DNA of 32,000 nucleotides from Thermoproteus tenax Kra 1 (GCF_000253055.1 NC_016070.1:330001-362000), one strand, 5' to 3'; shown: positions 7,367-21,956, counted from the stretch's first letter. Numbers and translations are program-made. The notes: a model not told the origin generated them from the letters alone.

Positions 7367-7772
7367 CGCCCATCACAACGACGGTTATCCTCCTCAGGCG
7401 GGGGCCGTCGAACTCCGCCAAGAACAGCTCCTGCCAAGTACCCCTTACCAGTCTGCCCCCCTTTACCGGAAAGATGTAGTGTTGCTTTAACAGCGCCGAG
7501 AGGAGGTGGGCGTCGCCGTTGTCGTCGATCTTGTTGTGCTCGTAGCGCCCGTCCTGGGGGACGAGCCTCTCGAACAGCGCCATGTAGTCCCTACGGAGGT
7601 TCGGCTCGTCCTCGTTGGCGAACAGAGCGGCGGTCGCGTGTGCCACAAAGGCCAGAGCTATACCGTCCGACACGCCCGACTCCCGGACTGCGTCCTCCAC
7701 CAGGCTGGTAATGTTGACGAGGTCTCTACGCGATTTGGTCGAGACCGAGAGCTCCTTTACGTAGACCCGCAT
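7350..7772 (-). CDS. YjbQ/UPF0047 family protein (secondary thiamine-phosphate synthase family)
   Basis: The ORF is 140 aa. [20 protein letters not shown] and GDAHLLSAL are typical of UPF0047. The 3' end overlaps the thrC start by 17 nt. Confidence 0.8.
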
Positions 7773-7854
7773 TTAGATGTCTGGGCACAGCTTTAAATAC
7801 GTGGGCCCCGTGCGTCCGCCGGAAAGGCATTTAAAGGCGGGTCTCCCTCCATCT

Positions 7855-8805
7855 ATGAGGGGCAAGCTCGCCCTAGCCGCCGGAGCGATCGCCATAGCTT
7901 TTCTCGCGCTCTATTTCGCCCGCCCCGGCGCGACCTCAAACGCGACTACTGCTACAGAGGGCGCAACGGCGACCTCCACAGAGGGCTCGGGGTACAGCTT
8001 GATCCCGGAGGGCTTGCCCCCGGCGGCGGCCGCCGCAGAGAACGTACGCGAGATGATGGCCAGAGCCGCGGTCGGGCCTGTCTTCATAGCCCCCTACCCC
8101 TGGAACGCAAAGGAGTGGACCGGCGTGGTGCAGGTCGCCTACGACGGCCGGGAGGTGACCGCCTCAGTGAACATGAGCTACACAGCTAAGTTCAACCCCT
8201 ACGCCCCCGTGTTGGGCTATCCCTCGGTTCGGTACGGCTGCGACCCTCTCTTCTACTACTGCAGCGGGAGGGCACAGCCTCTGGAGCTGCCCGAGCCGGC
8301 CTCCAAGGCAGGCGGGGTTCTGGTTCTGTCCTACAGCGTCAGCCCGGGAGACTGCAATGTGACCGACTTCTCCTACGACATATGGTTCAACAGAGGCGGG
8401 TTCAGACTCGGCGCAGGCGACCTAGAGCTGATGCTCTGGCTGTACTACAACGTTGACCCCTCTGCGTCTCTGCCGGCCCCGTACTGGCGCTATCTGGGCG
8501 AGAGGCGGCTGAGGATAGCGGTGGACGGCGCGTGGCAGACGGCGGAGGCCTCGGCCTACGTCCATCTGAGCCAAGGGAGCTGGTCTGTGCTCGTCTTCGT
8601 CCTGCGGAGGCCTGTGCGGTCGGGCACCGTCGCCGTAGATCTGGGCCAGCTGGTGCGGGCGGCGCAGGAAACGCTCAACGGTACACCGATAGATCTGGAG
8701 CGCCTAAACCTCACCTCGATAGACGTCGGCATGGAGTTCGACGGCCCGCCGGGCGTTCGGCTGACCTGCTCCTACGCCATATACGGCTGGTCGGCGGAGC
8801 CATGA
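7855..8805 (+). CDS. Secreted/anchored GH12-like endoglucanase-fold protein
   Basis: I trimmed track ORF 7777..8805 to ATG 7855 (MRGKLALAAGAIAIAFLALYF), about 22 nt downstream of the TTTAAA box at 7830-7835. SYDIWFN, DLELMLWLYY and VGMEFDG resemble the GH12 core blocks. Confidence 0.55.
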   Translation: MRGKLALAAGAIAIAFLALYFARPGATSNATTATEGATATSTEGSGYSLIPEGLPPAAAAAENVREMMARAAVGPVFIAPYPWNAKEWTGVVQVAYDGREVTASVNMSYTAKFNPYAPVLGYPSVRYGCDPLFYYCSGRAQPLELPEPASKAGGVLVLSYSVSPGDCNVTDFSYDIWFNRGGFRLGAGDLELMLWLYYNVDPSASLPAPYWRYLGERRLRIAVDGAWQTAEASAYVHLSQGSWSVLVFVLRRPVRSGTVAVDLGQLVRAAQETLNGTPIDLERLNLTSIDVGMEFDGPPGVRLTCSYAIYGWSAEP

Positions 8806-9407: not shown

Positions 9408-11096
9408 ATGGCAGGCGCCAACAGAAGGGAGGCCCTCAGGCTCCTGGGGGCCGCGGGTCTAGGCGCTCTGGCGGGCGCCCTCGCGGCGGACCTTCTGGCA
9501 AAGCCCGCGCCCGCTGCCACTACAACGGGCGCTCCACCGCCGGCGCCGCCCTACTCAGTCCTCGTCCAGACGCCCACGGGGCCCAACGGCGAGCCTAGGC
9601 CGATGGTGGTGTCGGCAGATGGGGAGGTCATAGTGGACAGCAACGGCAGAATAGTGAGCGACCTCGGAGTGTATCCGGCCCAGGGGATAAACGAGCTGGG
9701 CGGCACCACTGAGACGGCGGGCATACAAGAGGCGGTGGCCTACGTGTTGAACACCGGCGGCGGGAGGATCTTCATCAGGAGGGGGGACTATTACCCGAGC
9801 AAGGTGATCCACGTGGGCGTACTCGCGAGGCAGGCGCAGGTCATAATAGAGGGTGAGGGCGCGGCCACGAGGATCCATCTGTACAACAACCGGGGCAAGG
9901 GGCAGGCCTGGGCCTTCACCGTGGGGACCCCCGGGAACTCGCCGGCGGCCGACCAAGCGCCTCCGCCGGTCTTCAGAGGCTTGGCCTTCGTGAACGACCT
10001 AAACGAGGGTCCCCCCGTGGGCCCCATAGTGACCGGAGGATACTACTCGGGGGGAGGGGCGGTGGGCAACGGCGTGATACTGGAGGATATAACTGTGGTG
10101 GATCCGCCGGCGCTGGCCAACAACCCGTCCAAGGCGCCCTCGCCCATAGGCTGGATCTGGTTCAACAACTCCTACGGAGTGAGAGTGAGGGGGTTCACAT
10201 ATCTGGGGGCGAACCCGAACAACGCCGGCACCACAGTAATATTGAGCGACGGCGTCACCTTCACAGAGATAAGCGATTCGTACTTCATCAATACTGCGCG
10301 CGGGGGCAAAATAACGGCCATAGCCTCCGGCACAGGCACTCTCCAGATATCCAACGTGCAGATACTCGGCTTCGATGTGGGCATAAACTACGGCAACACC
10401 GACAGCAGAAGCAAGCTCATGGTGGTGAACACAGTGATAGGCACCGAGAGGGGCGGCGTAGAGGCGTTCGGAGCCCAGCTCTACACCAGCGTCCCGCTGT
10501 ACGTGGACTACGGCTTTGTGGACGCCATGATATGCTGCAGCAGACTGGGCGGAGTCCTGAGGCTGTTGGACTCAGTGGGGAGGATCACCATCAGCAACTC
10601 CGAGGTGCACCCGCTGACTGTGGAGGCTGTGACTCGCGGGAGCCCCCAGTCCGACCTCCTTCTGACTATCGAGGGGAGCAGAGTGAGGGGCCAGGGCAGC
10701 GGCCCGCTCCTGCACGTGTTGCCCGGGGGATCCTCGGTGAGGGTGAGGCTCATCGGCAACTATATGGCCAAATCGGCCGGCGAAGGGCAGTGGAGCTTGA
10801 TAGACATCCCCGACCTGGAGCTCTTCGAGGCGAGAGGGAACTACATCGAGCTCGGGCAGGGCTTCGACGTCGTGCTCTCCTTCAGCGAGAGCCCCGCAAG
10901 CGGCTTCTACGAGTTCAGCGACAACGTGGTAGCCCCCTCGGCGCAGCCCGCCTATCTGTTGAACGGCGGTGTGTCGATCTCGGCCCCCTTCATCGTAAGG
11001 AACAACAAATTCCTGTCGCCCACCTCGCTGGCCAAGTCGCCCCTCACCGGGGCATCGGGCCTGGCGCTGTCGGACAATCTGAATCTGTCCCAGTAG
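9408..11096 (+). CDS. Tat-exported right-handed beta-helix (pectate-lyase-fold) protein
   Basis: The ORF is 562 aa. It has a twin-arginine signal MAGANRREALRLLGAAGLGALAGAL and a Pro/Thr/Ala linker. GIQEAVAYVLNTGGGRIFIRRGDYY and repeated Gly/Asn/Val-rich segments are typical of parallel beta-helix proteins. Confidence 0.65.
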   Translation: MAGANRREALRLLGAAGLGALAGALAADLLAKPAPAATTTGAPPPAPPYSVLVQTPTGPNGEPRPMVVSADGEVIVDSNGRIVSDLGVYPAQGINELGGTTETAGIQEAVAYVLNTGGGRIFIRRGDYYPSKVIHVGVLARQAQVIIEGEGAATRIHLYNNRGKGQAWAFTVGTPGNSPAADQAPPPVFRGLAFVNDLNEGPPVGPIVTGGYYSGGGAVGNGVILEDITVVDPPALANNPSKAPSPIGWIWFNNSYGVRVRGFTYLGANPNNAGTTVILSDGVTFTEISDSYFINTARGGKITAIASGTGTLQISNVQILGFDVGINYGNTDSRSKLMVVNTVIGTERGGVEAFGAQLYTSVPLYVDYGFVDAMICCSRLGGVLRLLDSVGRITISNSEVHPLTVEAVTRGSPQSDLLLTIEGSRVRGQGSGPLLHVLPGGSSVRVRLIGNYMAKSAGEGQWSLIDIPDLELFEARGNYIELGQGFDVVLSFSESPASGFYEFSDNVVAPSAQPAYLLNGGVSISAPFIVRNNKFLSPTSLAKSPLTGASGLALSDNLNLSQ

Positions 11097-11257
11097 CCGG
11101 CAATTCCTAAGTCGCAGCCCTTTTAGGCCCCTCAGCCCGTTGACGAAGGTCGCCGCGGCCGCGGCCGGCGCGGGGGGAGACCGTTGCAAAACGCCGGCTG
11201 ACGGCCGGTTAGGGTTCGTACGTCTTAAGGCTTTTATGGTGGAGGTTTTGTCTTAGT

Positions 11258-11761
11258 GTGGCTGTAGTGTTGCCTGAGAGGCTGGTTAGGGAGGCGGAGC
11301 GGAGGGGTATCGACGTGGGGGAGGTGGCGTTGGAGGCCCTGGCCAGGGCTCTGGAGCTGGATCCAGCCGATGTAGCCGCCGCGCGTGTGGAGCTGGCGGA
11401 GAGGTTTCTCGCTGAGGCGGAGCAGTACGTCGAGAGGGGGGACGCGGTGCAGGCCAGCGAGAAGCTCCATAGAGCTGTGGAGGAGTGCGTCAAGGCGTTG
11501 GCGGAGGAGCTGGGGGTCGAGGCGCTTGGGGAGGTCAGGCGGAGGGGGCGGTGGGATACTTGGCTTCTGGGGCGGGCGGCGAGGGAGGCTGCTGAGAGGC
11601 TGGGGGAGGACAGAGTTAGGCTGGCGTGGAAAGACGCCTACGATATACACGTGTGGGGCTTCCACGAGGCTAAATACGACGTTAGGGACGTGAAGGCGGC
11701 TCTGCCCCTGGCCAGGTGGCTCGTCGAGTTTGTGAAGAGCCGCGTGGCCGGCCGCACCTAA
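11258..11761 (+). CDS. PaREP1-family protein (all-helical, HEPN-clan-like)
   Basis: The ORF is 167 aa. AEQYVERGDAVQASEKLHRAVEECVKALAEELG and DIHVWGFHEAKY resemble the Pyrobaculum PaREP1 family as I recall it. The GTG start lies about 26 nt after the TATA-like CTTAAGGCTTTTA. Confidence 0.6.
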   Translation: MAVVLPERLVREAERRGIDVGEVALEALARALELDPADVAAARVELAERFLAEAEQYVERGDAVQASEKLHRAVEECVKALAEELGVEALGEVRRRGRWDTWLLGRAAREAAERLGEDRVRLAWKDAYDIHVWGFHEAKYDVRDVKAALPLARWLVEFVKSRVAGRT

Positions 11762-12441
11762 CCTGCGGGGGCTCCCCCGGCGTATGTTCGCGGAGCTGTG
11801 GAGCCCCTAAAAATGCGATGAAGGTTCGGCCTTAACGGTGTTGACACGGGAGGCATCGGCGTGTTTAAAAATGGTGGAGGGGAAGGGACTAGCATCTGGG
11901 GGCCCGGACTTGAGGAGGTGGGCCGAGGCCGGGTTCAGGTGGGTCGCGGATTAGATGTTCCCTATGAGCCCTTTTCTCTGTCGTGGCTTCCTTCTTATGA
12001 AAATCTGAGTGGGAGGGGGCCTAAATATGTGCCTTCGGCGGTGAGGGGCAGTTCTATGGAGGGCTCCGCGCCTGGAGGGGCCGTGCCTTCGTCCCCCATG
12101 TCCGACGAACCTGCGGTGGAGGCAGGCCGCCAGTGGAGGCGCAGAGGAGGGGAAGGCCCTAGGCGTGTGCGGCCAACGACTGTCGGCAATGAGCGCCCGG
12201 GACAAACGGTACACAGTGGTGGGGAGATACCGAGGTCGACGCGGTCACATCGCCCGACTTCAGAGACTACGAGGTCAAATACAGAGAGGGCCGCCCCCTC
12301 AAGCTGAAAGCAGAGTGAAGGAGGTAGTCACGTTGACCAAGAGAGGCAGAGAGGGAACGGTGGCCCTCCAAAGCTTTCTCGCAGGTCTCTAGACGGCGTC
12401 CTTGCGCGCCGCTTAAGGTATTTATAAAGACGGTTCAGTAA

Positions 12442-12654
12442 GTGTACGTGGAGGAGGCTTGGAGGGCCCTCAAGGCGGCATATGAGGAGCTCGAGCGGTT
12501 TGGGAAGACGGGCGACCCCCTCGTGGAGGCCGCCCTCGCCAACTACTGGGGCCACGTATTGAGGCAGATGGCCTACGGGCTCATCCCCTACGGCTGCCCC
12601 GCCGACAAGATTCCTCCTATACACTCGGCGAACTCCTCCTCGGTCTCCTCGTAG
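12442..12654 (+). CDS. Hypothetical 68-70-aa protein
   Basis: GTG 12442 or 12448 lies 18-24 nt downstream of a strong TATA box (TATTTATAAA, 12419-12428). The first 45 or so aa look helical (VEEAWRALKAAYEELERFGKTGDPLVEAALANYWGHVLRQMAYG). The last 22 codons overlap the 3' end of the convergent McrC-like gene and are low-complexity. Confidence 0.3.
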   Translation: MYVEEAWRALKAAYEELERFGKTGDPLVEAALANYWGHVLRQMAYGLIPYGCPADKIPPIHSANSSSVSS

Positions 12655-13877
12655 TCTGGGTTTACTCTGCTGAATTTCACCTCCGCCTGCGTCGAATCTA
12701 TATTGGCCGACACCGCGGGGCATCCGCCGGCTTGAGGAGGGAGCTCCAGCGCCGTCAAGATCCCCCTCAGCTTGTGGTCTCTGGCCACGTCCGCCAGATA
12801 CGCCACAAGCCTAATGGCGTCGGCCCTCCTCAGCCTTCCCCCGTTCAGACGGCGGTATTTGGCCTCGACAATGACCAAGTTCCTCCCGCTCTCAACGACA
12901 ATGTCCGGCCTAGGCGGCCTCCCCGCTATCCTCTTTATCAGCTTGGACTTGGGCGCTCTATTGAAGTACACTCTGCCGTCGCCCCCCACCTCCACGGCGA
13001 TCCCCTCCCTCATCGCTTTCGCGGCCAACCCGTCCCTCTTGAGCGCCCAGATGGTGAGGGCTAGGACGTAGGTCTCATAGAGCTTTGTGCTCGGGATCAG
13101 GAAGAACTCGGACCCGGCCCTCCTGGCTGTGGCGGGGAGATAGAAGTAGTCGCCCGGATCGAGGTCCTCCGCCCAGAGGTGCGGGACCTCCTCTTCGGCG
13201 TCCTTCTGGAGCACTCTTAGGGCCGACTCCAGCGATGAGAGGTAGAGCTCGAACGCTCTTCCAACTCCCTCGGGGAGACCCGACGCATACCTCCGCGCCC
13301 TCTGGAGGAACTGGCTCAAGGTACTCAACGTCAGAAGGATCGAGCTGGCCAGCCAGACGTTGGGCACTACGACGTTTTTGACGAGGAGCTCTCTGCCCCC
13401 TCTGACGACGAGTTTCCCCGAGCCGGCCTCTACGGCGGCCCGGAAGTATTTGGGCTCCCGCTGGAGCAAGGCTCTGGCCTCCCAGAGGATCCTTGTTACG
13501 CGGACAACGTTGGGCACGTTTGTGGCGACGAGGCTCCTCGAGAGCAAATACAGAGGATAGACGTCGCGCAGAATCTCGTCGGCTCTCTCGATCATTCTGT
13601 AGTAGCGGCTCACCCTAGGCTTTATCACCAGCTCGATGCCGCCCGAGTATCTATAGACGCCGACCCAAAAGCCCGAGAGAACTCTGCGTCCAACGACGTC
13701 GGGCCTCGGAGTGTCCAAGGCTATTCCGCCCACCGGCCCCCTTCTGAAGTAGCCGAGGGTCGCCCGCATATCGAGCAACGCCCTCTTCAGCTCCTCGGCC
13801 GATACGCCGGAGTCGCACCCCCCGAGCGCCTCGTCCACCTCAAGCGCCTCGCCCTCGGTCAGAACGCACCGGCGCAT
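12588..13877 (-). CDS. McrC-like PD-(D/E)xK nuclease subunit
   Basis: The ORF is 429 aa. The N-terminal FWVGVYRYSGGIELVIKPRV resembles the McrC N-domain. The C-terminal PRPDIVVESGRNLVIVEAKYRRL fits PD...(D/E)xK. The ATG lies 1 nt after the McrB-like stop. Confidence 0.7.
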   Translation of the reverse strand: MRRCVLTEGEALEVDEALGGCDSGVSAEELKRALLDMRATLGYFRRGPVGGIALDTPRPDVVGRRVLSGFWVGVYRYSGGIELVIKPRVSRYYRMIERADEILRDVYPLYLLSRSLVATNVPNVVRVTRILWEARALLQREPKYFRAAVEAGSGKLVVRGGRELLVKNVVVPNVWLASSILLTLSTLSQFLQRARRYASGLPEGVGRAFELYLSSLESALRVLQKDAEEEVPHLWAEDLDPGDYFYLPATARRAGSEFFLIPSTKLYETYVLALTIWALKRDGLAAKAMREGIAVEVGGDGRVYFNRAPKSKLIKRIAGRPPRPDIVVESGRNLVIVEAKYRRLNGGRLRRADAIRLVAYLADVARDHKLRGILTALELPPQAGGCPAVSANIDSTQAEVKFSRVNPDYEETEEEFAECIGGILSAGQP

Positions 13878-13878
13878 T

Positions 13879-15072
13879 TCACTCTGGGAGCTCCTGGAGC
13901 AGCGCGTCTGCGATTCTGTACGAGAGGGAGTCCTCTCCGAATATCCTCTTGACGCCCCCTACAAAGTCGGCGAATTGGGAGCGGGATCTGTCGTTGGACG
14001 AGAGCAACGCCCTAAACCGCAGTTTGGGAACGGCGGCGGAGAACTGGGAGAGGACCAGAGAGGAGTAGGCCAGGTCGACGAAGGCCTCCCTCCTCAAATT
14101 GGGCAGAGTGCGCCTCAAGCCTGCGTACGCCGCCAGGAGCCGGGCCAGATCGGTTAAGACGGAGGGGCCGAGCTCGAGGCCCAGGTCCTTGGCCACGTCC
14201 AGCGTCCAGGCGAGCAGCCCGCCGAGGCCCAGCTCCGACCACAGCCCCCTCACCTCCTCTTTGACCCTCGCGCGGTCGCTGAAGTCCAGTCTGACTAACG
14301 TGGCTATGTCGCCCTCCACGGCGTCGCTGGGGGTCAGCTCCTCCACCGCGCGGTCGACGAAGCCGTCCAGAGCTCTCTCGAGCGGCCCGGCCGCCGCTCT
14401 GGGCACGGCCCCCTCCTCGAGGCGCGGCTCGTATCTCTCGTAGAAGGGCGGGACGTAGAGGTAGGCGAACCTCCTGAGGAGGGCGAAGCTCAGCCTAAAG
14501 AGCTGCGCTCTGTCGACGACGTTCATAGTGGCGAAGAGGCGGAAGGAGTAGGGCAGCGGCAGGCCGCCCAGACGAGCCGCCAACTCCTTCAGTTCGCGGA
14601 CGGCGGCTCCTGCGCACTCCTCCACTGCCGCGTCGTCGAGCTCGTGGGCCTTGAGCGCGGGCACTCTGTATCTATACGCCAGGTCTAGCGCAGTGAAGAG
14701 GTCTCCGAAGATCAGGTCTACGTTGGCTCTGTTGAGCTCGTCGAATACCACGTGGCAGGGGCCAGACCCCCTCAACAGAGAGGCCCAGGAGCGGAGCACG
14801 GCGCAGCCGAACGGGCCGTAGGCCCTCCTGAGGCCTCCGCCGGCTCTCTCGTATTTTGCCACAAGATCCTCGTGGGAGAGGCCGTCCCTGCCCACGACGA
14901 GCGCCGGCGCGCAGGCGGTCATGAACTCGGCCGACTCAAGCGCGAGCTTGGTTTTGCCGACTCCGGGCGCCCCCACGAACAAGACGTTTTTTCCAGAGGC
15001 CAACAGAGGCACGACGAACATCCTCAGCTCTTCGATGGCCACAGAGATTGACGGCCACCCGTATATTAGCAT
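13879..15072 (-). CDS. McrB-like AAA+ (GTPase-type) motor subunit
   Basis: The ORF is 397 aa with Walker A GAPGVGKT. VVFDELNRANVDLIFGDLFTALD and LFATMNVVDRAQLFRLSFALLRRF match the E. coli McrB DEINRAN... and NTADRS...ALRRRF blocks. The start is uncertain. ATG 15072 has no TATA box. GTG comp. 15042 lies about 23 nt after TATA-like CTAATATAC, and ATG 15021 is also possible. Confidence 0.8.
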   Translation of the reverse strand: MLIYGWPSISVAIEELRMFVVPLLASGKNVLFVGAPGVGKTKLALESAEFMTACAPALVVGRDGLSHEDLVAKYERAGGGLRRAYGPFGCAVLRSWASLLRGSGPCHVVFDELNRANVDLIFGDLFTALDLAYRYRVPALKAHELDDAAVEECAGAAVRELKELAARLGGLPLPYSFRLFATMNVVDRAQLFRLSFALLRRFAYLYVPPFYERYEPRLEEGAVPRAAAGPLERALDGFVDRAVEELTPSDAVEGDIATLVRLDFSDRARVKEEVRGLWSELGLGGLLAWTLDVAKDLGLELGPSVLTDLARLLAAYAGLRRTLPNLRREAFVDLAYSSLVLSQFSAAVPKLRFRALLSSNDRSRSQFADFVGGVKRIFGEDSLSYRIADALLQELPE

Positions 15073-15346
15073 AGACGCAGAGGGGCACGCCGTCGTTTGG
15101 ATGGGGCACGCGGCTGAACCGGCGCGGCCCGCTGGGGCTCAGGTCTGCGGCCTCTGGCGACGCCCAGGAGAGGCGCACATCAGTCCGCCGTCCCGGGTGG
15201 ACGCAAATGCAATGTAGCCGCCTCCACGGCAGAGGATAACGGCTACAACGCTGGACGAGGGCTGTCTCTACGTTCAATTATTATGACATGCGTTGCGCTG
15301 TTTTTAGCGACCCTACTAAGGAACGCAGGTGTAGCCGTATGTGCCG

Positions 15347-15852
15347 TTTACTATCTTTCGATTTCCATCCCTGAGGAGCAGAGGAGAGGATCAAGACGAG
15401 AATTAGAACGTTTCTACTATCTTTTGATTTCCACACGCGCTCTACGCCGTCCACGCGAGGCTATATAGCATCGCGATATTTCTACTATCTTTTGATTTCC
15501 ACTCAATGGCGATACAGCGTGGGGGCCTGTAGTGCCATGGCTCACATTTCTACTATCTTTTGATTTCCACCGAAGAGGTCTCTGGAGCGGCTGGGGAGCT
15601 AAAATATCCCCTCCCGTACTTTCTACTATCTTTTGATTTCCACCCCCGCTTTTTCTTCCGACCACGTAACTGTGGAAGTCAAACGTGATCTTTCTACTAT
15701 CTTTTGATTTCCACGCACCTACCTCTCTCTGTGTGTGGCCAGTCCATCGGAGATAACCTTTCTACTATCTTTTGATTTCCACAGCTAGGCTACATTTCTA
15801 AGACTGGCGGTGCTCACTTTGTGGAAGCTTTCTACTATCTTTTGATTTCCAC
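15347..15852 (-). CRISPR. CRISPR array, 7 perfect repeats plus 1 degenerate terminal repeat, 7 spacers
   Basis: TTTCTACTATCTTTTGATTTCCAC (+ strand) starts at 15411, 15479, 15547, 15620, 15691, 15759 and 15829. A degenerate copy, TTTACTATCTTTCGATTTCCAT, sits at 15347-15368. The spacers are 42-49 nt and all different. I infer the minus strand for three reasons. The repeat then reads GTGGAAATCAAAAGATAGTAGAAA(G), ending in a GAAAG-type handle. The decayed repeat sits at the low-coordinate (trailer) end. A TATA-like box lies just beyond the high-coordinate repeat. Confidence 0.95.
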
Positions 15853-15895
15853 CGCCCACGTTGACTGCGGCCTCGGGTATTTAAATTTTGCCCAG
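15853..15895 (-). promoter_or_regulatory. Probable CRISPR leader promoter
   Basis: TATTTAAATTTT at 15878-15889 lies about 25-30 nt from the first repeat (15852) when read on the minus strand. Confidence 0.45.
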
Positions 15896-16121
15896 ATCCT
15901 CCGCCCGCCCGGCGGCCGCTTTTCCGCTGCCCTTTACATTCACACATTCTCCTGTCCGGGCTACGGCGTGCGCCGTTCTTCGCCTTTACGATCGCGACAA
16001 TGCCTTAGAGACGGCGGCTACCCAGCGCCGTTCTTCGCATTTGGCCATCTAGCCCCTTGTCTGGAGTATATTACATCCTTTACCGACATATATTGGAATG
16101 TTTTAATGCTCGTGGGATATC

Positions 16122-16409
16122 GTGGGCGTGTACTTCGGCCGTGTGAAGGTAGGCCCCTTGGCGGGATACCTCTGGCTTTTGGGCAGGCGGCTCTACCTCA
16201 AGCTGGGCTGGCGCCCGCGTGATACGGTATACCTGGGCTCTGTGGACGACCTCCTGGGGGTTGCGGTGAGGGTTAGGAGGCTTCTGCCGAGGCCTCTGCC
16301 CGTTAGGCAGCTCGTGGCTGCGCTGGCGGACGCCCTCAAAAAGGCCTACTACGTCGCCAGCCGCTGCCGCGCTGGAGGGTGCGCGCCTGGGAGGCGGCGA
16401 TGGCCATAG
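16122..16409 (+). CDS. Hypothetical 95-aa basic protein
   Basis: GTG 16122 is preceded by TATA-like boxes at about 16087-16095 and 16101-16107. The N-terminal 75 aa look protein-like (VYFGRVKVGPLAGYLWLLGRRLYLKLGWRPRDTVYLGSVDDLL...LVAALADALKKAYYVAS). I recognise no family. Confidence 0.35.
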   Translation: MGVYFGRVKVGPLAGYLWLLGRRLYLKLGWRPRDTVYLGSVDDLLGVAVRVRRLLPRPLPVRQLVAALADALKKAYYVASRCRAGGCAPGRRRWP

Positions 16410-16740
16410 AATACGCCGCCTCTGCATTGGCAGTGTACTGGCCAAGCGCCGCCAGAAAGATACTGGACGACGGCTAAACATAGTGGAGGTAATGATGGCG
16501 TCTTTGGGGCCTCGGGGTCATGGATAGGCCTAGATAAACTGTGGTAGCTCTTGGGGACGTTGTGGTAGTACATAGGGATGACGGCGCCCTTGGCAGTTGG
16601 GCGGATCGAATGAGCGATTGCGCGGCGTGTCCTGAGGTCTACAAGCTCCGAATTTCGGAGGAGTAAGCGTCCTCAGCGCCGTACGGAGAGCACAACATCG
16701 AGCTCTGGGTTGATCTGACGCCGTAATTTCAGCTGTTCTG

Positions 16741-17862
16741 CTAGGCAGCGGTCGGCGTAGCGTTAGGCGTCGCGGGGCTCTTGGCGTATTTGGCGAGGAT
16801 TTCGGCGGCGGACGTCAGCATGACGTCTTCGGCGGTGGCTAGGTCCTGCGCCATTTTCCTTATATCTATTTCGGCGGTCGTGGCGCCGTGTTTGTCACGG
16901 TGGATGTAGTATGTTTTGACTCCTGCGACGCGGTCCCAGAGGGCCGAGAGCAGGAGGGGGTTGTGAGCGGCGAGCACCACGTGGATAGTGGAGGCGGCCT
17001 GGGCGATGTGGTCGGCGAGCAGATCCAGGAGGAACGGGAATAAGTGCGCCTCGGGCTCCTCCAGCGCGACGACGAGGCGCCCCTCTAGGCCGTAGAGCTT
17101 GGCGTAGCTGGCGGCGGACCTCAGGGCGGCTAGGTAGTACACCAGCCGGTACAGGTCCTCGGATACGGAGGGCGACGTCACCTCGTAGTCGTAGTCGTAG
17201 ACGGCGATGGCGCCCTCCTTGGACACCTTGAGCTCTATCTTCTCGCCGAGTCTTTCGGCCAACGTCTCGTTGATCTCCCTCACGACGTCTGGTGTGTACC
17301 TGATGACTCGGCGTATGTTCCAGCCGAGGTCGCTTAGGATGTTGTGGGGGATGACCCTACCCTGGGTGGTTAGGTAGTCGTAGAAGCCGCAGTGGCCCTG
17401 TCGGCACCCCGTGGCCGACAGGCCGTATCTGTCGTATCCGTAGAGGCGGGTCTCCACGAGGATGTCCTGGAATGAGGCCAGGTCGCCCCCGGCGGTGAGA
17501 TACTTCATATCTATCTCGGCTGTCGCGTCTCCTGCCTTCACCTGTAGCCTTAGGCCCTGTCTGTAGTGGATGGAGACGGAGTATTTGGGCATCTCGATGG
17601 TTGGAGTCTTGGTTAGGTCGTAGTTCCGGAAGAGGGCTCTGGGCTCTGTAAACCTGGCGATCCACTCCAGCGGCTCCAAACTGTTCGCTCTTCCGCCATA
17701 TTCCTCATTCAGGCGCAGGAGCCTGGCGGGGTAGCCCAAGACGGCGAGGGCGTCCAGAATATTCGACTTGCCCCCCGCCGGTGGGCCTATAAGCACAGTG
17801 AGGGGGGCTATCTCCAGCTCAGCGTATGCGACGCTTTTGAAGTCTCTGATGGCCACCCGCAC
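16741..17862 (-). CDS. ABC-type (AAA_15/AAA_21-like) ATPase, stand-alone
   Basis: The ORF is 373 aa. It has Walker A GPPAGGKSN, signature-like SEDLYRLVYYLAAL, Walker B LVVALEEPEAHLFP and H-loop LAAHNP. GTG 17862 lies about 25 nt downstream of TCATATAAAAA (comp. 17883-17893). Confidence 0.8.
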   Translation of the reverse strand: MRVAIRDFKSVAYAELEIAPLTVLIGPPAGGKSNILDALAVLGYPARLLRLNEEYGGRANSLEPLEWIARFTEPRALFRNYDLTKTPTIEMPKYSVSIHYRQGLRLQVKAGDATAEIDMKYLTAGGDLASFQDILVETRLYGYDRYGLSATGCRQGHCGFYDYLTTQGRVIPHNILSDLGWNIRRVIRYTPDVVREINETLAERLGEKIELKVSKEGAIAVYDYDYEVTSPSVSEDLYRLVYYLAALRSAASYAKLYGLEGRLVVALEEPEAHLFPFLLDLLADHIAQAASTIHVVLAAHNPLLLSALWDRVAGVKTYYIHRDKHGATTAEIDIRKMAQDLATAEDVMLTSAAEILAKYAKSPATPNATPTAA

Positions 17863-17943
17863 GTTTCCCCCGCCGCCCCGGTTTTTATATGAATCTGGCG
17901 CCGTGGGGCGGCTGCCGGCCTCCGAGTCCTCTGTGTCTGGCGT

Positions 17944-18231
17944 CTAGGGGTTCCGCCCCCTTTCCTGCCTTAGGAGGCGTCTGCCCTTCCTGGTGAGGCG
18001 GTAGTAGACGTGGTGTTTCCGCACCTCGTGGCCTAGCTTGTAGCGGGCCTCGGTCCGTTTGAGGGTTTTGCCGCCTCTTGCCCGCTCGACGAGGCCCAGG
18101 GCCTCGAGCTTTTCCAGGATCTCGAGGACCCTCTGTAGGGGGATGCCCGTGTTTACCGCGATGGATTTGCCGTAGAGGTCGTCCTCAAGCCCTAGCGAGA
18201 TCCCCGGCGAGCCCCACCCCCGCCGAACCAC
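17944..18231 (-). CDS. Small winged-helix DNA-binding protein (DUF2250-like)
   Basis: The ORF is 95 aa. IAVNTGIPLQRVLEILEKLEALGLVER is HTH-like. KHHVYYRLTRKGRRLL is a wing/C-terminal motif reminiscent of archaeal DUF2250 proteins. A TATA-like box on the minus strand lies at 18247-18256. Confidence 0.65.
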   Translation of the reverse strand: MVRRGWGSPGISLGLEDDLYGKSIAVNTGIPLQRVLEILEKLEALGLVERARGGKTLKRTEARYKLGHEVRKHHVYYRLTRKGRRLLRQERGRNP

Positions 18232-18446
18232 ACTGTGGAGCAGGCGCCTAAAAAGGCGGATTCCTACGAGGCCGGGGGAAGCCCGATAGGGAGATGATGT
18301 ACCTCCACTAGGCCGACCTCTGACGAACCGCGCGCAAGCCGCCCCCGGAGGGCCCGCCGGTTCTGCTCTATCTATTCTCTAGCTTAAAAATCTTCCGCCT
18401 CTGGCGCGAGGGGTGAGTGCATTTAAACGTGGAAAATAGCGCATGT

Positions 18447-19826
18447 GTGTATGTGTTTGTTAGGAAGGTCATTATTAGAAACTTCAAGAGCATCGGGGAG
18501 CTGGAGCTTGAGCTGAGGCCTGGGGTGAACCTCCTGGTGGGCCCCAACGGGGCTGGGAAATCCAACGTCTTGGAGGCGATTAGGTTCGCCAGGAGGGCTC
18601 TGGTGGAGGCGGCCTCGCCGTATCTCCCATATGCGCCGGACTACCTCTCGCCGCTTGACGTGATCTACGGCCGGGACCCGAGGCGGGAGGTGGCGCTGGG
18701 TTTTGGCCTGGAGCTCTACGGCGAGGAGGGCGGGGAGTGGCTGTCGGCCTATGCGGAGTTCACCACCTACTTCAGGTACAGGCCGCAGCCCTACGAGACG
18801 ATTGAGCCCGTCCGCCACGTGGTAAAAATCGGCGACACCCAGGCGGAGATAGACAGAGGAGGCGTCACCATCACGGCCCCAAGGGAGCACTTCGACAGAG
18901 CGATGAAGTGGATCAAGGAACATGGGAAGCGTATACTACCTTTACCTTTCAAACTAGCCGAGCCTAAGGAGGAGGGCGACAGGACAGTCGTCTCGTATAG
19001 GTGGGACATGGAGGTGCCGCTACAGCTCGAGGGCCTTAGACACGTGCTGTGGCCGGGGCCGAGGGGGAGGGCGTCGGAGGACTTGTTGGCGTGTAGCCTA
19101 GTCGCCCGGAGGACTCTCACGCCGTTCCCGGTCGCGTTGGGGAGGGCCAAGAGGCCGAGGGGGGTCCCCGTGGATCTGTCGCCGTGGTTCTGTCTGGATG
19201 GAGTCTTAGATGCCGTGAGGGGGGTTCTCTGGAGGGTGGTCTTTCTCCGGCATGTGGAGAGGCGTGTGGAGCCTGTGCCTATCGCCGGCGGAGATGTGCT
19301 TGATGAGCGGGGGCGGAACGTGGCCGCGGTGCTGTTTAGCTACAGGGGGAGGTTTGGGAGGAATCCCGAGTCTGTCGACAGAGCTCTGGCCGCCCTCTTT
19401 CCGGGCGTCCTGCTGGAGGTTAGGCAGCTTTACAACAGCGCTCTTCTTGTCGCCAGGGAGGGGGATGTGGAGCTTCCCCCCTCCAACATCCCCGACGGCT
19501 TGCTTAAGCTGGTGGTGCTGATGCTGGCGGTGGATTTGGGCCCCTCGCTGCTCCTCGTGGACGAGGTGGAGAACAGCATGCACGCGAGGCTTCTGGAGTA
19601 CGTCGTGGACGTGTTTAACGGGCTTAACGTGCCGGTCCTCCTGGCCACGCACTCCCCCGTGGTTGTGGATCTGGTCGACCTTGAGAGGATCTACTTCCTG
19701 TCTAAAGGCCCTGGGGGGACCCGCGCGGAGGCGGTTCCTGACCCCGAGGAGCTGAGAAGGCGGCTGGGCGAGGCCGGGGTTGCGATTAGCGACTATTTCT
19801 TTTACACGAAGAGGTACGGCAGGTGA
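18447..19826 (+). CDS. ABC-type (AAA_15/AAA_21-like) ATPase with large insert
   Basis: The track ORF starts at GTG 18417, but that codon sits immediately upstream of, and abuts, the TATA-like GCATTTAAACG (18419-18429). In-frame GTG 18447 or 18453 fits a leaderless start (VFVRKVIIRNFKSIGEL...). Motifs are Walker A GPNGAGKSN, signature-like PDGLLKLVVLMLAV, Walker B LLLVDEVENSMH and H-loop LLATHSP. Confidence 0.8.
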   Translation: MYVFVRKVIIRNFKSIGELELELRPGVNLLVGPNGAGKSNVLEAIRFARRALVEAASPYLPYAPDYLSPLDVIYGRDPRREVALGFGLELYGEEGGEWLSAYAEFTTYFRYRPQPYETIEPVRHVVKIGDTQAEIDRGGVTITAPREHFDRAMKWIKEHGKRILPLPFKLAEPKEEGDRTVVSYRWDMEVPLQLEGLRHVLWPGPRGRASEDLLACSLVARRTLTPFPVALGRAKRPRGVPVDLSPWFCLDGVLDAVRGVLWRVVFLRHVERRVEPVPIAGGDVLDERGRNVAAVLFSYRGRFGRNPESVDRALAALFPGVLLEVRQLYNSALLVAREGDVELPPSNIPDGLLKLVVLMLAVDLGPSLLLVDEVENSMHARLLEYVVDVFNGLNVPVLLATHSPVVVDLVDLERIYFLSKGPGGTRAEAVPDPEELRRRLGEAGVAISDYFFYTKRYGR

Positions 19827-20356
19827 TGGCCGCGCGCTTTCTATTCGTGGAAGACCAACACGGAGTCGAATTCCACCAAAGGCTTATAGAAAAGCTACAG
19901 AACTCTGGCATAGTACCTCACAGCTTGGCTCCTAAGATCGAGAGGATACCGACCGGCCTCTGTAATTCCTCCCTGGGGAGAAAAATTGCTGCGAGGTTAT
20001 TCGGGTTAGAGCGGTGGCGTATACTATTTGTTATAGACTCCGAGGGGGAGGAGAAGAGGGCGGCGGCCGACGCGAGAGTTCTCAGGCATCTGAGAAGCCA
20101 CGAGTCGCTCAGGGATAGGTTGGATAATGTAAGAGTTGTGGTGGTTCACCCACGTCATGAGAAGTGGCTTTGCATGGGGTTGGGCGGCAGAAGCTGTAAT
20201 TCAGATCCAGAGAGTGAGCTTGATAGAATCCTTGGGAGGGTGTATAAGAAAGACGAATTAGCTAAGCAGGCTGGCCGTCTAAATGTGGAGGGGCTAATGT
20301 CGGATGGCGACTTCAGGGAGTACATCGAGGGGCTTAGGTGGCTTTTGTCCTCTTAG
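19823..20356 (+). CDS. Small Toprim-like protein (DUF4276/RloB-like), coupled to upstream ATPase
   Basis: The ORF is 176-177 aa. GTG 19823 or ATG 19826 overlaps the ATPase TGA (19824-19826). FLFVEDQHG (E10), ILFVIDSEGEE (D72/E74) and VVVHPRHEKWL (E113) follow the Glu / acidic cluster / E-x-W order of Toprim-derived partners of AAA_21 ATPases. This is from memory of the family consensus, not a search. Confidence 0.55.
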   Translation: MMAARFLFVEDQHGVEFHQRLIEKLQNSGIVPHSLAPKIERIPTGLCNSSLGRKIAARLFGLERWRILFVIDSEGEEKRAAADARVLRHLRSHESLRDRLDNVRVVVVHPRHEKWLCMGLGGRSCNSDPESELDRILGRVYKKDELAKQAGRLNVEGLMSDGDFREYIEGLRWLLSS

Positions 20357-20987: not shown

Positions 20988-21956
20988 CTACTCCTGGGGT
21001 GGGGCCGGGTAGACTACCTCCAGCCCTAGGTCTTTGGCCATTGCCTTCACCCGCTCGGGGTATCTGTCGTCTATATAGGGGGTGACCACGTAGACGGCGG
21101 CCACCTTGGCCCCCCTGGCCCTCTCGTAGAGCTCCCTCTTCTTCACTATGGTGGGCAGGTCGCTCCGCTTCAGCGAGGACATAATCTCGACGATTATCAG
21201 CCTCCCGTCTCTGACCACCACGTCGTAGTCCACCTCGGAGGGGGTGCCGTATACGTAGCCCTCTCTGTCGTAGAGGACCTCCTTGGACGCAGACCACCCG
21301 GCCTCCTTCAACATGGCCCTCATGCCCTCCCTAAAGGCCTCCTCGCTGATCACCCCCCATCTGGCCCCCAGCGCGTCCAGCTTCCTCTCCAGCTTGTTGA
21401 TGGCCCTCCACAGCTCCTCGACGTCCTTCTTAGTGGCCATCCTCTCCTCGAGAGCCCTCAGCTCCTCTCTCGTGGCCAGGGCCTTCAGATCTTCCTTCGT
21501 AGCCATCCTCTCCCCAAGCGCCCTGAGCTCCTCCTTGGTGGCGAGGCCCTTTAGATCCTCCTTTGTAGCCATAACTTTTCTCACCTCCTCCAACCGCTCT
21601 TCTAGCCTCTTGAAGTCCTCTCTCGTGACAAGAGCCTTCAGATCCTCCTTAGTGGCGAGGGCTTTGAGGTCGTCCTTAGTGGCGAACGCCTTAAGATCGT
21701 CCTTTGCGGCCATCCTGGCCTCCAGATCCTTTATCTCCTCCTTGGTGGCCATTTCTCTCCTCACCTCCTCCAGCCGCTCCTCCACCCTCTGTATCTCCTC
21801 CCTCAAAGATCTCACGTCCTCCTTTGTGGCCAAGCTCTGCCACGGCGTAAGCTTGGCGAGGGCTCGGTAGAGCACCTCGGGCCTCGCCTCCAGGGCCTCG
21901 GCGATTATCTCGGGGTGCTCGAGAAGAACCCTCCTCACCTCCTCTGCGACGCCCAC
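20988..21956 (-). CDS. Coiled-coil tandem-repeat protein (ATKEDLKAL repeats) with C-terminal PD-(D/E)xK-like domain (DUF3782-type)
   Basis: The ORF is 322 aa with 11 copies of the A-T-K-E-D-L-K-A-L-type nonapeptide between aa 42 and 182. The C-terminal EVDYDVVVRDGRLIIVEIMSSLK...VVTPYIDD...LGLEVVYP resembles the restriction-endonuclease-like fold of archaeal DUF3782-type proteins. GTG 21956 lies about 24 nt after TTATAAAAAA (comp. 21976-21985). Confidence 0.75.
   Translation of the reverse strand: MGVAEEVRRVLLEHPEIIAEALEARPEVLYRALAKLTPWQSLATKEDVRSLREEIQRVEERLEEVRREMATKEEIKDLEARMAAKDDLKAFATKDDLKALATKEDLKALVTREDFKRLEERLEEVRKVMATKEDLKGLATKEELRALGERMATKEDLKALATREELRALEERMATKKDVEELWRAINKLERKLDALGARWGVISEEAFREGMRAMLKEAGWSASKEVLYDREGYVYGTPSEVDYDVVVRDGRLIIVEIMSSLKRSDLPTIVKKRELYERARGAKVAAVYVVTPYIDDRYPERVKAMAKDLGLEVVYPAPPQE
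21411..21833 (-). repeat. In-frame 27-nt periodic coding repeat (11 nonapeptide units, interspersed with EERLEEVR linkers)
   Basis: Units start at aa 43, 70, 84, 92, 101, 110, 130, 139, 152, 161 and 174 of the 20988..21956 protein. The DNA copies differ at many synonymous positions. Confidence 0.6.

Follow-up and report, generated by a model that had tools for sequence, protein, structure and literature searches.

A predicted McrBC-type motor and nuclease without a reader domain in Thermoproteus tenax, and the loss of a linked third gene

Several McrBC systems have been described, and they differ in how the motor is connected to DNA. In McrBC from Thermococcus gammatolerans (PDB 6UT3-6UT8; Niu et al. 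2020, PMC7680126), the motor subunit McrB carries a YTH-like reader for N6-methyladenine and an N-linker that confers GTP specificity. McrB from E. coli K-12 has an N-terminal domain that binds 5-methylcytosine. In the EVE-McrB fusions (Bell et al. 2020, PMC7641849; 2024, PMC11090510), the reader is an EVE domain, which is a classic reader type for McrB (PMC7641849). The non-canonical LlaI and BsuMI systems, which are bacterial and occur with methyltransferases, instead use separate proteins: a DNA binder (R1, encoded upstream in the same operon), a motor (R2) without a fused DNA binder, and a nuclease (R3). In LlaI.R2 and BsuMI.R2, which have no N-linker, GTP specificity is lost as well (bioRxiv 10.64898/2026.08.31.748284). 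Here we describe a pair of genes from the archaeon Thermoproteus tenax Kra 1 that encode a McrBC-type motor and nuclease. They lie in a stretch of 32,000 nucleotides (GCF_000253055.1 NC_016070.1:330001-362000), which we will call the window; positions are counted from its first letter. The motor has no reader domain. A third gene is linked to this pair in related archaea, and T. tenax has lost nearly all of it by a microhomology-mediated deletion of about 4.3 kb.

The motor gene (13879-15072, minus strand) encodes at most 397 amino acids. This is an upper limit, as our listing of open reading frames (ORFs) begins each one at the first start codon past a stop. The probable start is the GTG at 15042, which gives 387 amino acids and is the start in the NCBI annotation (P0001, an "AAA family ATPase" of T. 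tenax on a 1.84-Mb contig, 100% identical to the motor in the window); the ATG at 15021 is an alternative. Numbered from the longest form, the motor has the Walker A motif GAPGVGKT at residues 34-41 (nt 14950-14973), the Walker B residues D111-E112 in VVFDELNRAN (nt 14737-14742), the McrB consensus loop MNVVDR (M183-N184-V-V-D187-R188, within ATMNVVDR at 181-188; nt 14509-14526), and the arginine pair R200-R201 within ALLRRF at 197-202 (nt 14470-14475), all on the minus strand. Another 195 residues follow F202. G34-T41, D111-E112, N184, D187, and R200-R201 are invariant across 22 homologues. A reading of this DNA made from the sequence alone (the sequence-only reading) had already picked out these McrB-type blocks. 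It had also placed Walker A at residue 34 or earlier and estimated that about 190 residues follow ALLRRF, and all of this agrees with our results: Walker A begins somewhere between residues 17 and 34, depending on which start codon is chosen. The residue after the P-loop is not aromatic (GKT-K42); the family has K, R, E, L, Q, or W at this position. The loop is of the NxxD class (NVVD) rather than the NxD class (as distinguished in PMC11090510), and there is no coiled-coil extension in either the sequence or the predicted model, so the motor does not belong with the CoCoNuTs or the NxD branch of McrBC systems.

Whichever start applies, the protein is an AAA+ module alone. A candidate archaeal TATA-like element, read from the sequence (CTAATATAC, 15061-15069, minus strand), lies inside the longest ORF and 19-27 nt upstream of GTG 15042, and it would fit a leaderless transcript that begins at that GTG. 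(A scan for sigma-70 promoters is not applicable to an archaeon.) The stretch MLIYGW/ATGCTAATATAC is conserved in Pyrobaculum islandicum, where the annotation likewise begins at a downstream GTG. A degenerate terminal repeat of a CRISPR array (15345-15368, on the same strand as mcrB) lies only 273 nt upstream of ATG 15072, which leaves too little space for an N-terminal reader domain. When we compared the EVE domain and the other N-terminal extensions of relatives to the 32-kb window with tblastn, there was no match. We also considered the out-of-frame ORF of 113 amino acids at 14936-15277, which is bounded by the CRISPR array, and we rejected a hidden N-terminal domain. The absence of an N-terminal reader, as first noticed in the sequence, thus holds up, and the available sequence speaks against an upstream extension or a frameshift; the motor from P. 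islandicum has an equally short N-terminus.

Comparisons of sequence and predicted structure indicate that the motor is a distant member of the McrB family and not an orthologue of E. coli McrB. The motor matches AAA_5 from Pfam (E = 6.5e-17). For a profile built from 22 family members, the top match among PDB sequences is E. coli McrB (E = 1.1e-16, residues 191-361), and the alignment spans the P-loop, DEINRAN, MNTADRS, and ALRRRF. As in E. coli, the motor and nuclease genes are in tandem and the nuclease is of the PD-(D/E)xK type. The AlphaFold2 model of the motor is of high quality (predicted local distance difference test, pLDDT, 88.9; predicted template modeling score, pTM, 0.89) and has an alpha/beta core (7-207) with a helix-2 beta-hairpin (72-85), followed by seven helices (229-393). 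Using Foldseek, the model is most similar to the AAA+ module of T. gammatolerans McrB (TgMcrB; E = 6.9e-9), then to E. coli McrB, and then to NorQ and CbbQ. On the other hand, the motor scores 28 bits against the NCBIfam equivalog for McrB (PRK11331), whose cut-off is 637. The pair departs from McrBC in this curated score, in the aromatic residue after the P-loop (which E. coli McrB has), and in the reader and N-linker, and it agrees with McrBC in most structural and motif features.

The second gene (12588-13877, minus strand, 429 amino acids) encodes the McrC-type subunit. As the sequence-only reading had reported, it starts one nucleotide past the stop codon of mcrB (TGA-a-ATG) and contains a PD...EAK motif. 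This catalytic motif is P324-D325...E338-A-K340, from PRPDIVVESGRNLVIVEAKY (nt 12858-12908, minus strand). Across 12 homologues, D325 and K340 never vary and the acidic position is filled by E or D; an upstream glutamate is conserved as well. (Our collection of McrC homologues is small, with 6-7 proteins from word-indexed searches and 2 loci from a scan of genome contigs.) The score against the McrBC family of Pfam (PF10117) is 20 bits, which is just under the gathering score of 23.9. In the AlphaFold2 model (pLDDT 72, pTM 0.80), an N-terminal beta-rich domain is followed by helices with a beta-hairpin, two long helices, and a C-terminal PD-ExK domain. We interpret these as a beta-rich scaffold, finger, and long helices (approximately residues 1-250) and the nuclease (approximately 257-425). 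T. gammatolerans McrC (TgMcrC; 458 amino acids, PMC7680126) likewise has an N-terminal scaffold, a finger, and a PD-(D/E)xK nuclease. With the whole model as the query, Foldseek found five significant matches in PDB, and all five are McrC chains (TgMcrC, 6UT7_G, at E = 9.8e-12, followed by E. coli McrC). The motor and the nuclease stay together in every locus that we examined.

If the motor has no N-terminal reader, then where might DNA be recognized? The sequence-only reading had suggested the C-terminal region of the motor, the long N-terminal half of McrC, or another protein. The predicted structures of both proteins match solved McrB and McrC over their full lengths, with no added DNA-binding fold. 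The C-terminal region is indeed longer than in E. coli McrB, as that reading had stated: there are 195 residues past the RRF motif in T. tenax and about 107 in E. coli, so that the small subdomain of the T. tenax motor is about 88 residues longer. But the tail is about as long in TgMcrB (about 188 residues; its ALRRRF is at 422-427 of 613), and TgMcrB also resembles the T. tenax motor in the size of its AAA+ module, the extra helices of the small subdomain, the NxxD loop, and the RR pair. (The two motors are only about 17-20% identical, and their tails past RRF have no detectable sequence similarity.) The AlphaFold2 model shows the tail as entirely helical, and the tail carries a net charge of -6. 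When searched as a profile, it had no match in PDB past the RRF motif and no similarity to any solved DNA-binding domain.

The tail is also found in relatives that have N-terminal domains. We searched 1.84 billion representative sequences exhaustively with the profile of the motor and obtained 19,373 matches. A more distant tier (E from 1e-65 to 1e-36) comprises proteins of 550-1250 amino acids that match at their C-terminal ends and cover profile positions 7-372 or so of 396. Hundreds of these relatives have N-terminal extensions of 170-850 amino acids, and the distant relatives with N-terminal domains have 190-228 residues past RRF. Similarly, P0031, which is from a word-indexed search and combines MrcB_N with AAA_5, shares the conserved C-terminal motifs, which follow its N-terminal domain. 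Because the tail is shared with relatives that bear N-terminal domains, it probably belongs to the motor module that a large McrB subfamily has as standard, and is not a substitute for a reader. We rejected the tail as a dedicated reader (it is helical and acidic, it lacks PDB matches past RRF, and it is conserved in relatives with N-terminal domains), and we rejected the N-terminal half of McrC because the whole model matches solved McrC chains only. As modeled, the tail is a helical small subdomain, and McrC has the usual scaffold and finger in its N-terminal half. Two of the three suggested sites of recognition thus fail, the extra C-terminal fold by the criterion that the sequence-only reading itself had set, and the third, another protein, is favored by the comparison with related loci.

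Close homologues of the motor were found only in Thermoproteota (Thermoproteus, Pyrobaculum, Pyrodictiaceae, Thermofilum, and related metagenomic contigs). Among 27 full-length representatives of the close cluster (E < 1e-71), 23 are reader-less and start within a few residues of the beginning of the profile; the other four (P0006, P0046, P0012, and P0053) have N-terminal extensions. Similarly, in 33 of 45 sequences from the family, Walker A is at residues 21-44, as expected for reader-less forms. In a neighbor-joining tree, the extended forms fall within one subclade of Thermoproteaceae, and all of the deeper branches are reader-less, with reader-less forms basal. Judging from these sequences, lacking a reader is the normal state of this clade. 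The view that a reader-less McrBC would be mechanistically unusual was therefore overstated, as reader-less motors have been characterized in LlaI and BsuMI and are the majority in the archaeal clade.

Some Pyrobaculum motors (P0005, P0006, P0010, and P0011) do have a likely EVE domain, in the classic reader position of McrB. The match of PF01878 to the N-terminal domain from P. calidifontis and its relatives is weak (E = 4e-4, 20.8 bits, as compared to a gathering score of 23). The branch with T. tenax and P. islandicum has no EVE domain, and neither do the deeper branches of the clade. At a P. aerophilum-type locus (L003), an EVE domain that is split over two frames (7562-7988) lies upstream of a reader-less McrB of 359 amino acids (P0004). 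This could be either a decaying, frameshifted reader or a sequencing error that is present in several assemblies. Given the EVE-bearing subclade and the frameshifted EVE domain of L003, readers appear to have been both gained and lost within the clade.

A third protein is encoded at every relative's locus with enough flanking sequence. Usually its gene is directly downstream of mcrC, on the opposite strand, and overlaps the 3' end of mcrC (L001 from P. calidifontis, L003/L004, L007, L008, L009 from P. oguniense, and L011/L012 from P. islandicum). At L005 and L006, it is directly upstream of the motor gene and on the same strand. And in one case it is fused to the motor: the N-terminus of P0053, a motor of 608 amino acids, is the third-protein module (E = 3e-8 and 9e-8). 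This "Rosetta-stone" fusion argues for a physical association of the third protein with the motor. The core of the third protein is NDLRRLG...G..W...RLT.LG, along with a C-terminal PYG.D motif, and its length varies: the 220-aa protein from L005 matches the C-terminal half of the 436-aa protein from L006 (43% identity, E = 7e-47). We also searched in reverse, beginning with the third gene, and recovered two further metagenomic loci with adjacent McrC and McrB genes and the same convergent layout; these are close relatives of known loci.

At three loci, the third protein has an extra N-terminal domain of about 170-200 amino acids (L006, 4731-5330; L007, 9982-9400, minus strand; L008, 9738-9230, minus strand). 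These domains contain beta-strand motifs rich in tryptophan and glycine that are reminiscent of PUA-like folds, without any significant match. Comparing the domains from L006 and L007 to an alignment of EVE with hhalign gave a probability of 0.1, and the best PDB match for the domain from L008 was the UPF0310 protein 2P5D (E = 1).

In T. tenax, the third gene is nearly gone. We compared the window to the locus from P. islandicum (L011, CP000504.1) with blastn and found three collinear blocks: L011 1641-3850 aligns to window 18160-15910 (83% nucleotide identity), L011 6784-9368 aligns to window 15076-12510 (78.5%), and L011 13702-15044 aligns to window 12519-11164 (90%). Between the last two blocks, approximately 4.3 kb of L011 (9368-13702) is missing from the window. 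In P. islandicum, this stretch contains most of the third gene, an AAA_21 ATPase with a small partner ORF, an ORF of 221 amino acids, a SocA_Panacea-like gene, and the 3' part of a PaREP1-like gene. The two blocks meet at a 10-nt microhomology (GGCGACCCCC, 12510-12519, with no strand assigned), which marks the deletion junction. An ORF of 70 amino acids spans the junction (12442-12654, plus strand). It is a chimera: its first 26 codons are PaREP1-like (VYVEEAWRALKAAYEELERFGKTGDP) and are in frame with the last 44-47 or so codons of the third gene (LVEAALANYWGHVLRQMAYGLIPYGCPADKIPPIHSANSSSVSS). The chimeric ORF overlaps the 3' end of mcrC by 67 nt. In a tblastn search with the 314-aa third protein from P. 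islandicum, residues 267-305 matched window 12508-12624 (61.5% identity, E = 2.6e-11). The NDLRRLG core is absent from the window: no second significant piece was found in the whole window or in 11601-12700.

The deletion must be young. An independent contig from Logan (L015, from SRR28178318) matches window 14574-12509 with 98.7% identity; past the junction, it runs on into an intact third gene with the NDLRRLG core, so the deletion is strain-specific and very recent. Relative to P. islandicum, the ratio of nonsynonymous to synonymous substitutions (dN/dS) is 0.12 for McrB and 0.14 for McrC; these low values reflect past purifying selection and are uninformative about function since the deletion. 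As for the PaREP1 family, the window contains one gene at 11258-11761 (plus strand, E = 1.9e-35), and the start of the chimera (12442-12519, plus strand) is the 5' stub of a second PaREP1/DUF5618-like gene.

We propose that this clade of McrBC systems relies on a third subunit. By homology to T. gammatolerans McrBC (PMC7680126), the motor would form an asymmetric hexamer, the finger of McrC would enter the pore of the hexamer and stimulate sequential hydrolysis of NTPs by way of the NxxD loop, and the PD-ExK domains would dimerize and cut both DNA strands. The third subunit, alone or together with EVE, would provide target engagement or licensing in trans, much like R1 of LlaI and BsuMI. Because the motor has no N-linker and no aromatic residue after the P-loop, we infer, by analogy to LlaI.R2 and BsuMI.R2, that it may not be strictly GTP-specific and could be nucleotide-promiscuous. 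The T. tenax locus would then be a recently truncated three-gene system, with its motor and nuclease intact. It probably no longer targets DNA normally, which is the weakest step of our proposal. Taken as a whole, this account (a McrBC-class pair, in a reader-less clade, with a third subunit acting in trans and a recent truncation in T. tenax) is the one we lean towards, and we consider it somewhat probable.

The closest known architecture, in terms of function, appears by analogy to be that of the three-gene LlaI and BsuMI systems. The similarities are that the motor lacks both a fused DNA-binding domain and the N-linker, that an additional gene is linked, and that the architecture of the catalytic loop is conserved. 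However, the third gene of the T. tenax clade is mostly convergent with mcrC and has no detectable similarity to any known family; it is likened to R1 by its arrangement. Also, no methyltransferase domains were found among the larger ORFs that we scanned in the 32-kb window. More tentatively, and with more doubt than confidence, we suggest that the Thermoproteota clade is an undescribed three-component class of McrBC. The reader-less and probably nucleotide-promiscuous motor-nuclease would depend on the NDLRRLG protein as its obligatory subunit for targeting or licensing; readers would be added modularly, either to the motor (EVE) or to the third protein (other N-terminal domains); and T. tenax would be a natural and very recent knockout.

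Several observations weigh against our proposal. The third protein has no match in Pfam, NCBIfam, PADLOC, or PDB sequences, and its best profile match in PDB is a chance SAM-domain motif (E = 0.23). Its isoelectric point (pI) ranges from 5.3 to 9.2, so it is not consistently basic, and its composition gives no indication of DNA binding. Other roles, such as adaptor, regulator, or antitoxin-like partner, are conceivable. Its convergent orientation is unusual for subunits of one complex. The third gene also co-occurs with EVE-bearing motors (L001 and L013), so it is not simply a substitute for a reader, and at L005 and L009 none of the three proteins has a recognizable reader. The model of McrC has segments of low confidence (residues 141-171 and 234-254), and the neighbor-joining tree carries no support values. 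Finally, our reading of the loss of the third gene covers the 32-kb window, and T. tenax may have a full-length paralogue of this gene, or a stand-alone reader, at another place in its genome.

The main competing explanation is that the pair is a self-sufficient, two-component McrBC, in which the surface of the hexamer, the wing helices, or the McrC dimer binds DNA. Such a system would act without a modification reader, for instance on unprotected or structurally aberrant DNA; the third gene would be an unrelated or regulatory passenger, and the T. tenax pair would be fully functional. This would explain why both ORFs are intact with all of their catalytic residues, and it would suit the low dN/dS, the absence of recognizable readers at L005 and L009, and the variable pI of the third protein. 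Furthermore, McrC is basic (pI 9.3), with a net charge of +7 in residues 91-172. However, characterized McrC cannot stably bind DNA by itself, its finger blocks the pore of the hexamer, and the tail of the motor is acidic. A passenger gene also seems inconsistent with linkage wherever the flanking sequence suffices and with the fusion in P0053. And given the 98.7%-identical relative, the deletion is too recent for intact ORFs to inform us about function after the loss. Overall, we consider a two-component system to be unlikely, although it deserves to be taken seriously. We think it far less plausible that the missing reader is an artefact, with a frameshift, a sequencing error, or a mis-called start hiding an N-terminal domain. 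L003 does have frameshifted remnants of EVE directly upstream of its "reader-less" ORF. In T. tenax, though, the CRISPR repeat is too near, tblastn found no remnants of EVE or other N-terminal domains, and the P. islandicum protein is just as short, and we give this explanation almost no credence.

We also considered that the pair might have nothing to do with restriction and that the motor might be a remodelling ATPase of the MoxR/NorQ type (AAA_5) next to an unrelated protein with a nuclease fold. NorQ and CbbQ are strong matches to the model of the motor (E around 1e-7), and the low equivalog score and the missing aromatic residue would both make sense. However, the MNxxDR loop, which is specific to McrB and replaces sensor I, is invariant together with the adjacent RR; the top matches by both sequence and structure are McrB; and close relatives have a likely EVE domain where McrB would have it. 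The partner matches McrC over its full length and is not a VWA protein, as would be expected for MoxR/NorQ/CbbQ. We view a remodelling ATPase as highly improbable. A slightly better case, though still a poor one, can be made for an accessory effector linked to the CRISPR array: the pair lies at the trailer end of the array in the same orientation, might be expressed by read-through, and might degrade DNA that CRISPR interference has marked or exposed, without reading base modifications. T. tenax and P. islandicum both have an AAA_21 ATPase gene, a leader, the CRISPR array, mcrB, and mcrC in this order, and their arrays, of 8 and 36 repeats respectively, belong to one repeat family. But these two loci are one inherited or transferred island (78-90% nucleotide identity), and so they count as one observation. 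None of the eight other loci that we checked has an array, there are no cas genes in the 32-kb window, and domain scans of the motor and McrC found no CARF, SAVED, or other signalling domains. In the absence of independent replication, we rejected a functional link to CRISPR.

The CRISPR array itself (15345-15852, minus strand) has 8 repeats of GTGGAAATCAAAAGATAGTAGAAA and is oriented like mcrB. The repeats are 24-25 nt and are spaced 66-73 nt from start to start, with an AT-rich leader at approximately 15853-16100. With no cas genes in the window, the array is an orphan. P. islandicum has a syntenic array upstream of the pair, and the leader side is 83% identical. Altogether, window 11164-18160 shares about 6 kb, in three blocks, with L011, even though the genera differ (Thermoproteus and Pyrobaculum). 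This suggests that the shared island (a DUF2250 regulator, an AAA_21 ATPase, the CRISPR array, mcrBC, and PaREP1) was transferred horizontally or is unusually conserved.

Other genes in the window may also be involved in defence. Two ATPases of the ABC/OLD type (AAA_15/AAA_21) are encoded at 16741-17862 (minus strand) and 18417-19826 (plus strand); their best matches in PADLOC are HEC-01A, PDC-M07A, AriA, and GajA. A 177-aa ORF at 19823-20356 (plus strand) overlaps the end of the second ATPase gene and does not match any family. These genes probably form further two-gene defence modules. The gene at 20988-21956 (minus strand) encodes a nuclease-family protein with DUF3782 and PDDEXK_10, and its tandem repeats of 66 nt and 27 nt (21424-21572 and 21634-21704) give the protein an internally repetitive N-terminal region. 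On the other side of the pair, an ORF of 562 amino acids (9408-11096, plus strand) adjoins a GH12 glycosidase gene (7777-8805). It has a twin-arginine-like signal (RREALRLLGAAGLGALA) and no match in Pfam, and it may be a secreted beta-helix-type protein. Scans of the window for Rfam families and tRNAs gave no matches.

A reader-less motor is not surprising in itself; rather, it is the conserved and uncharacterized third subunit, along with its natural knockout, that is notable. How McrBC engages DNA and moves along it is unresolved because McrC plugs the pore and the tethered readers are invisible in the solved structures. A separate subunit that engages DNA or licenses the complex, as in LlaI and BsuMI, would be a useful handle on this mechanism, and the archaeal clade would provide a second, unrelated example, with a new partner family, a fusion, and natural variation in how readers are attached. 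For annotation, our results imply that, in Thermoproteales, an "AAA family ATPase" paired with a "hypothetical protein" is a defence module of the McrBC type and that the small ORF at 12442-12654 should be read as a deletion chimera. And since T. tenax and its 98.7%-identical relative form a natural pair without and with the third gene, the role of the third subunit is directly testable.

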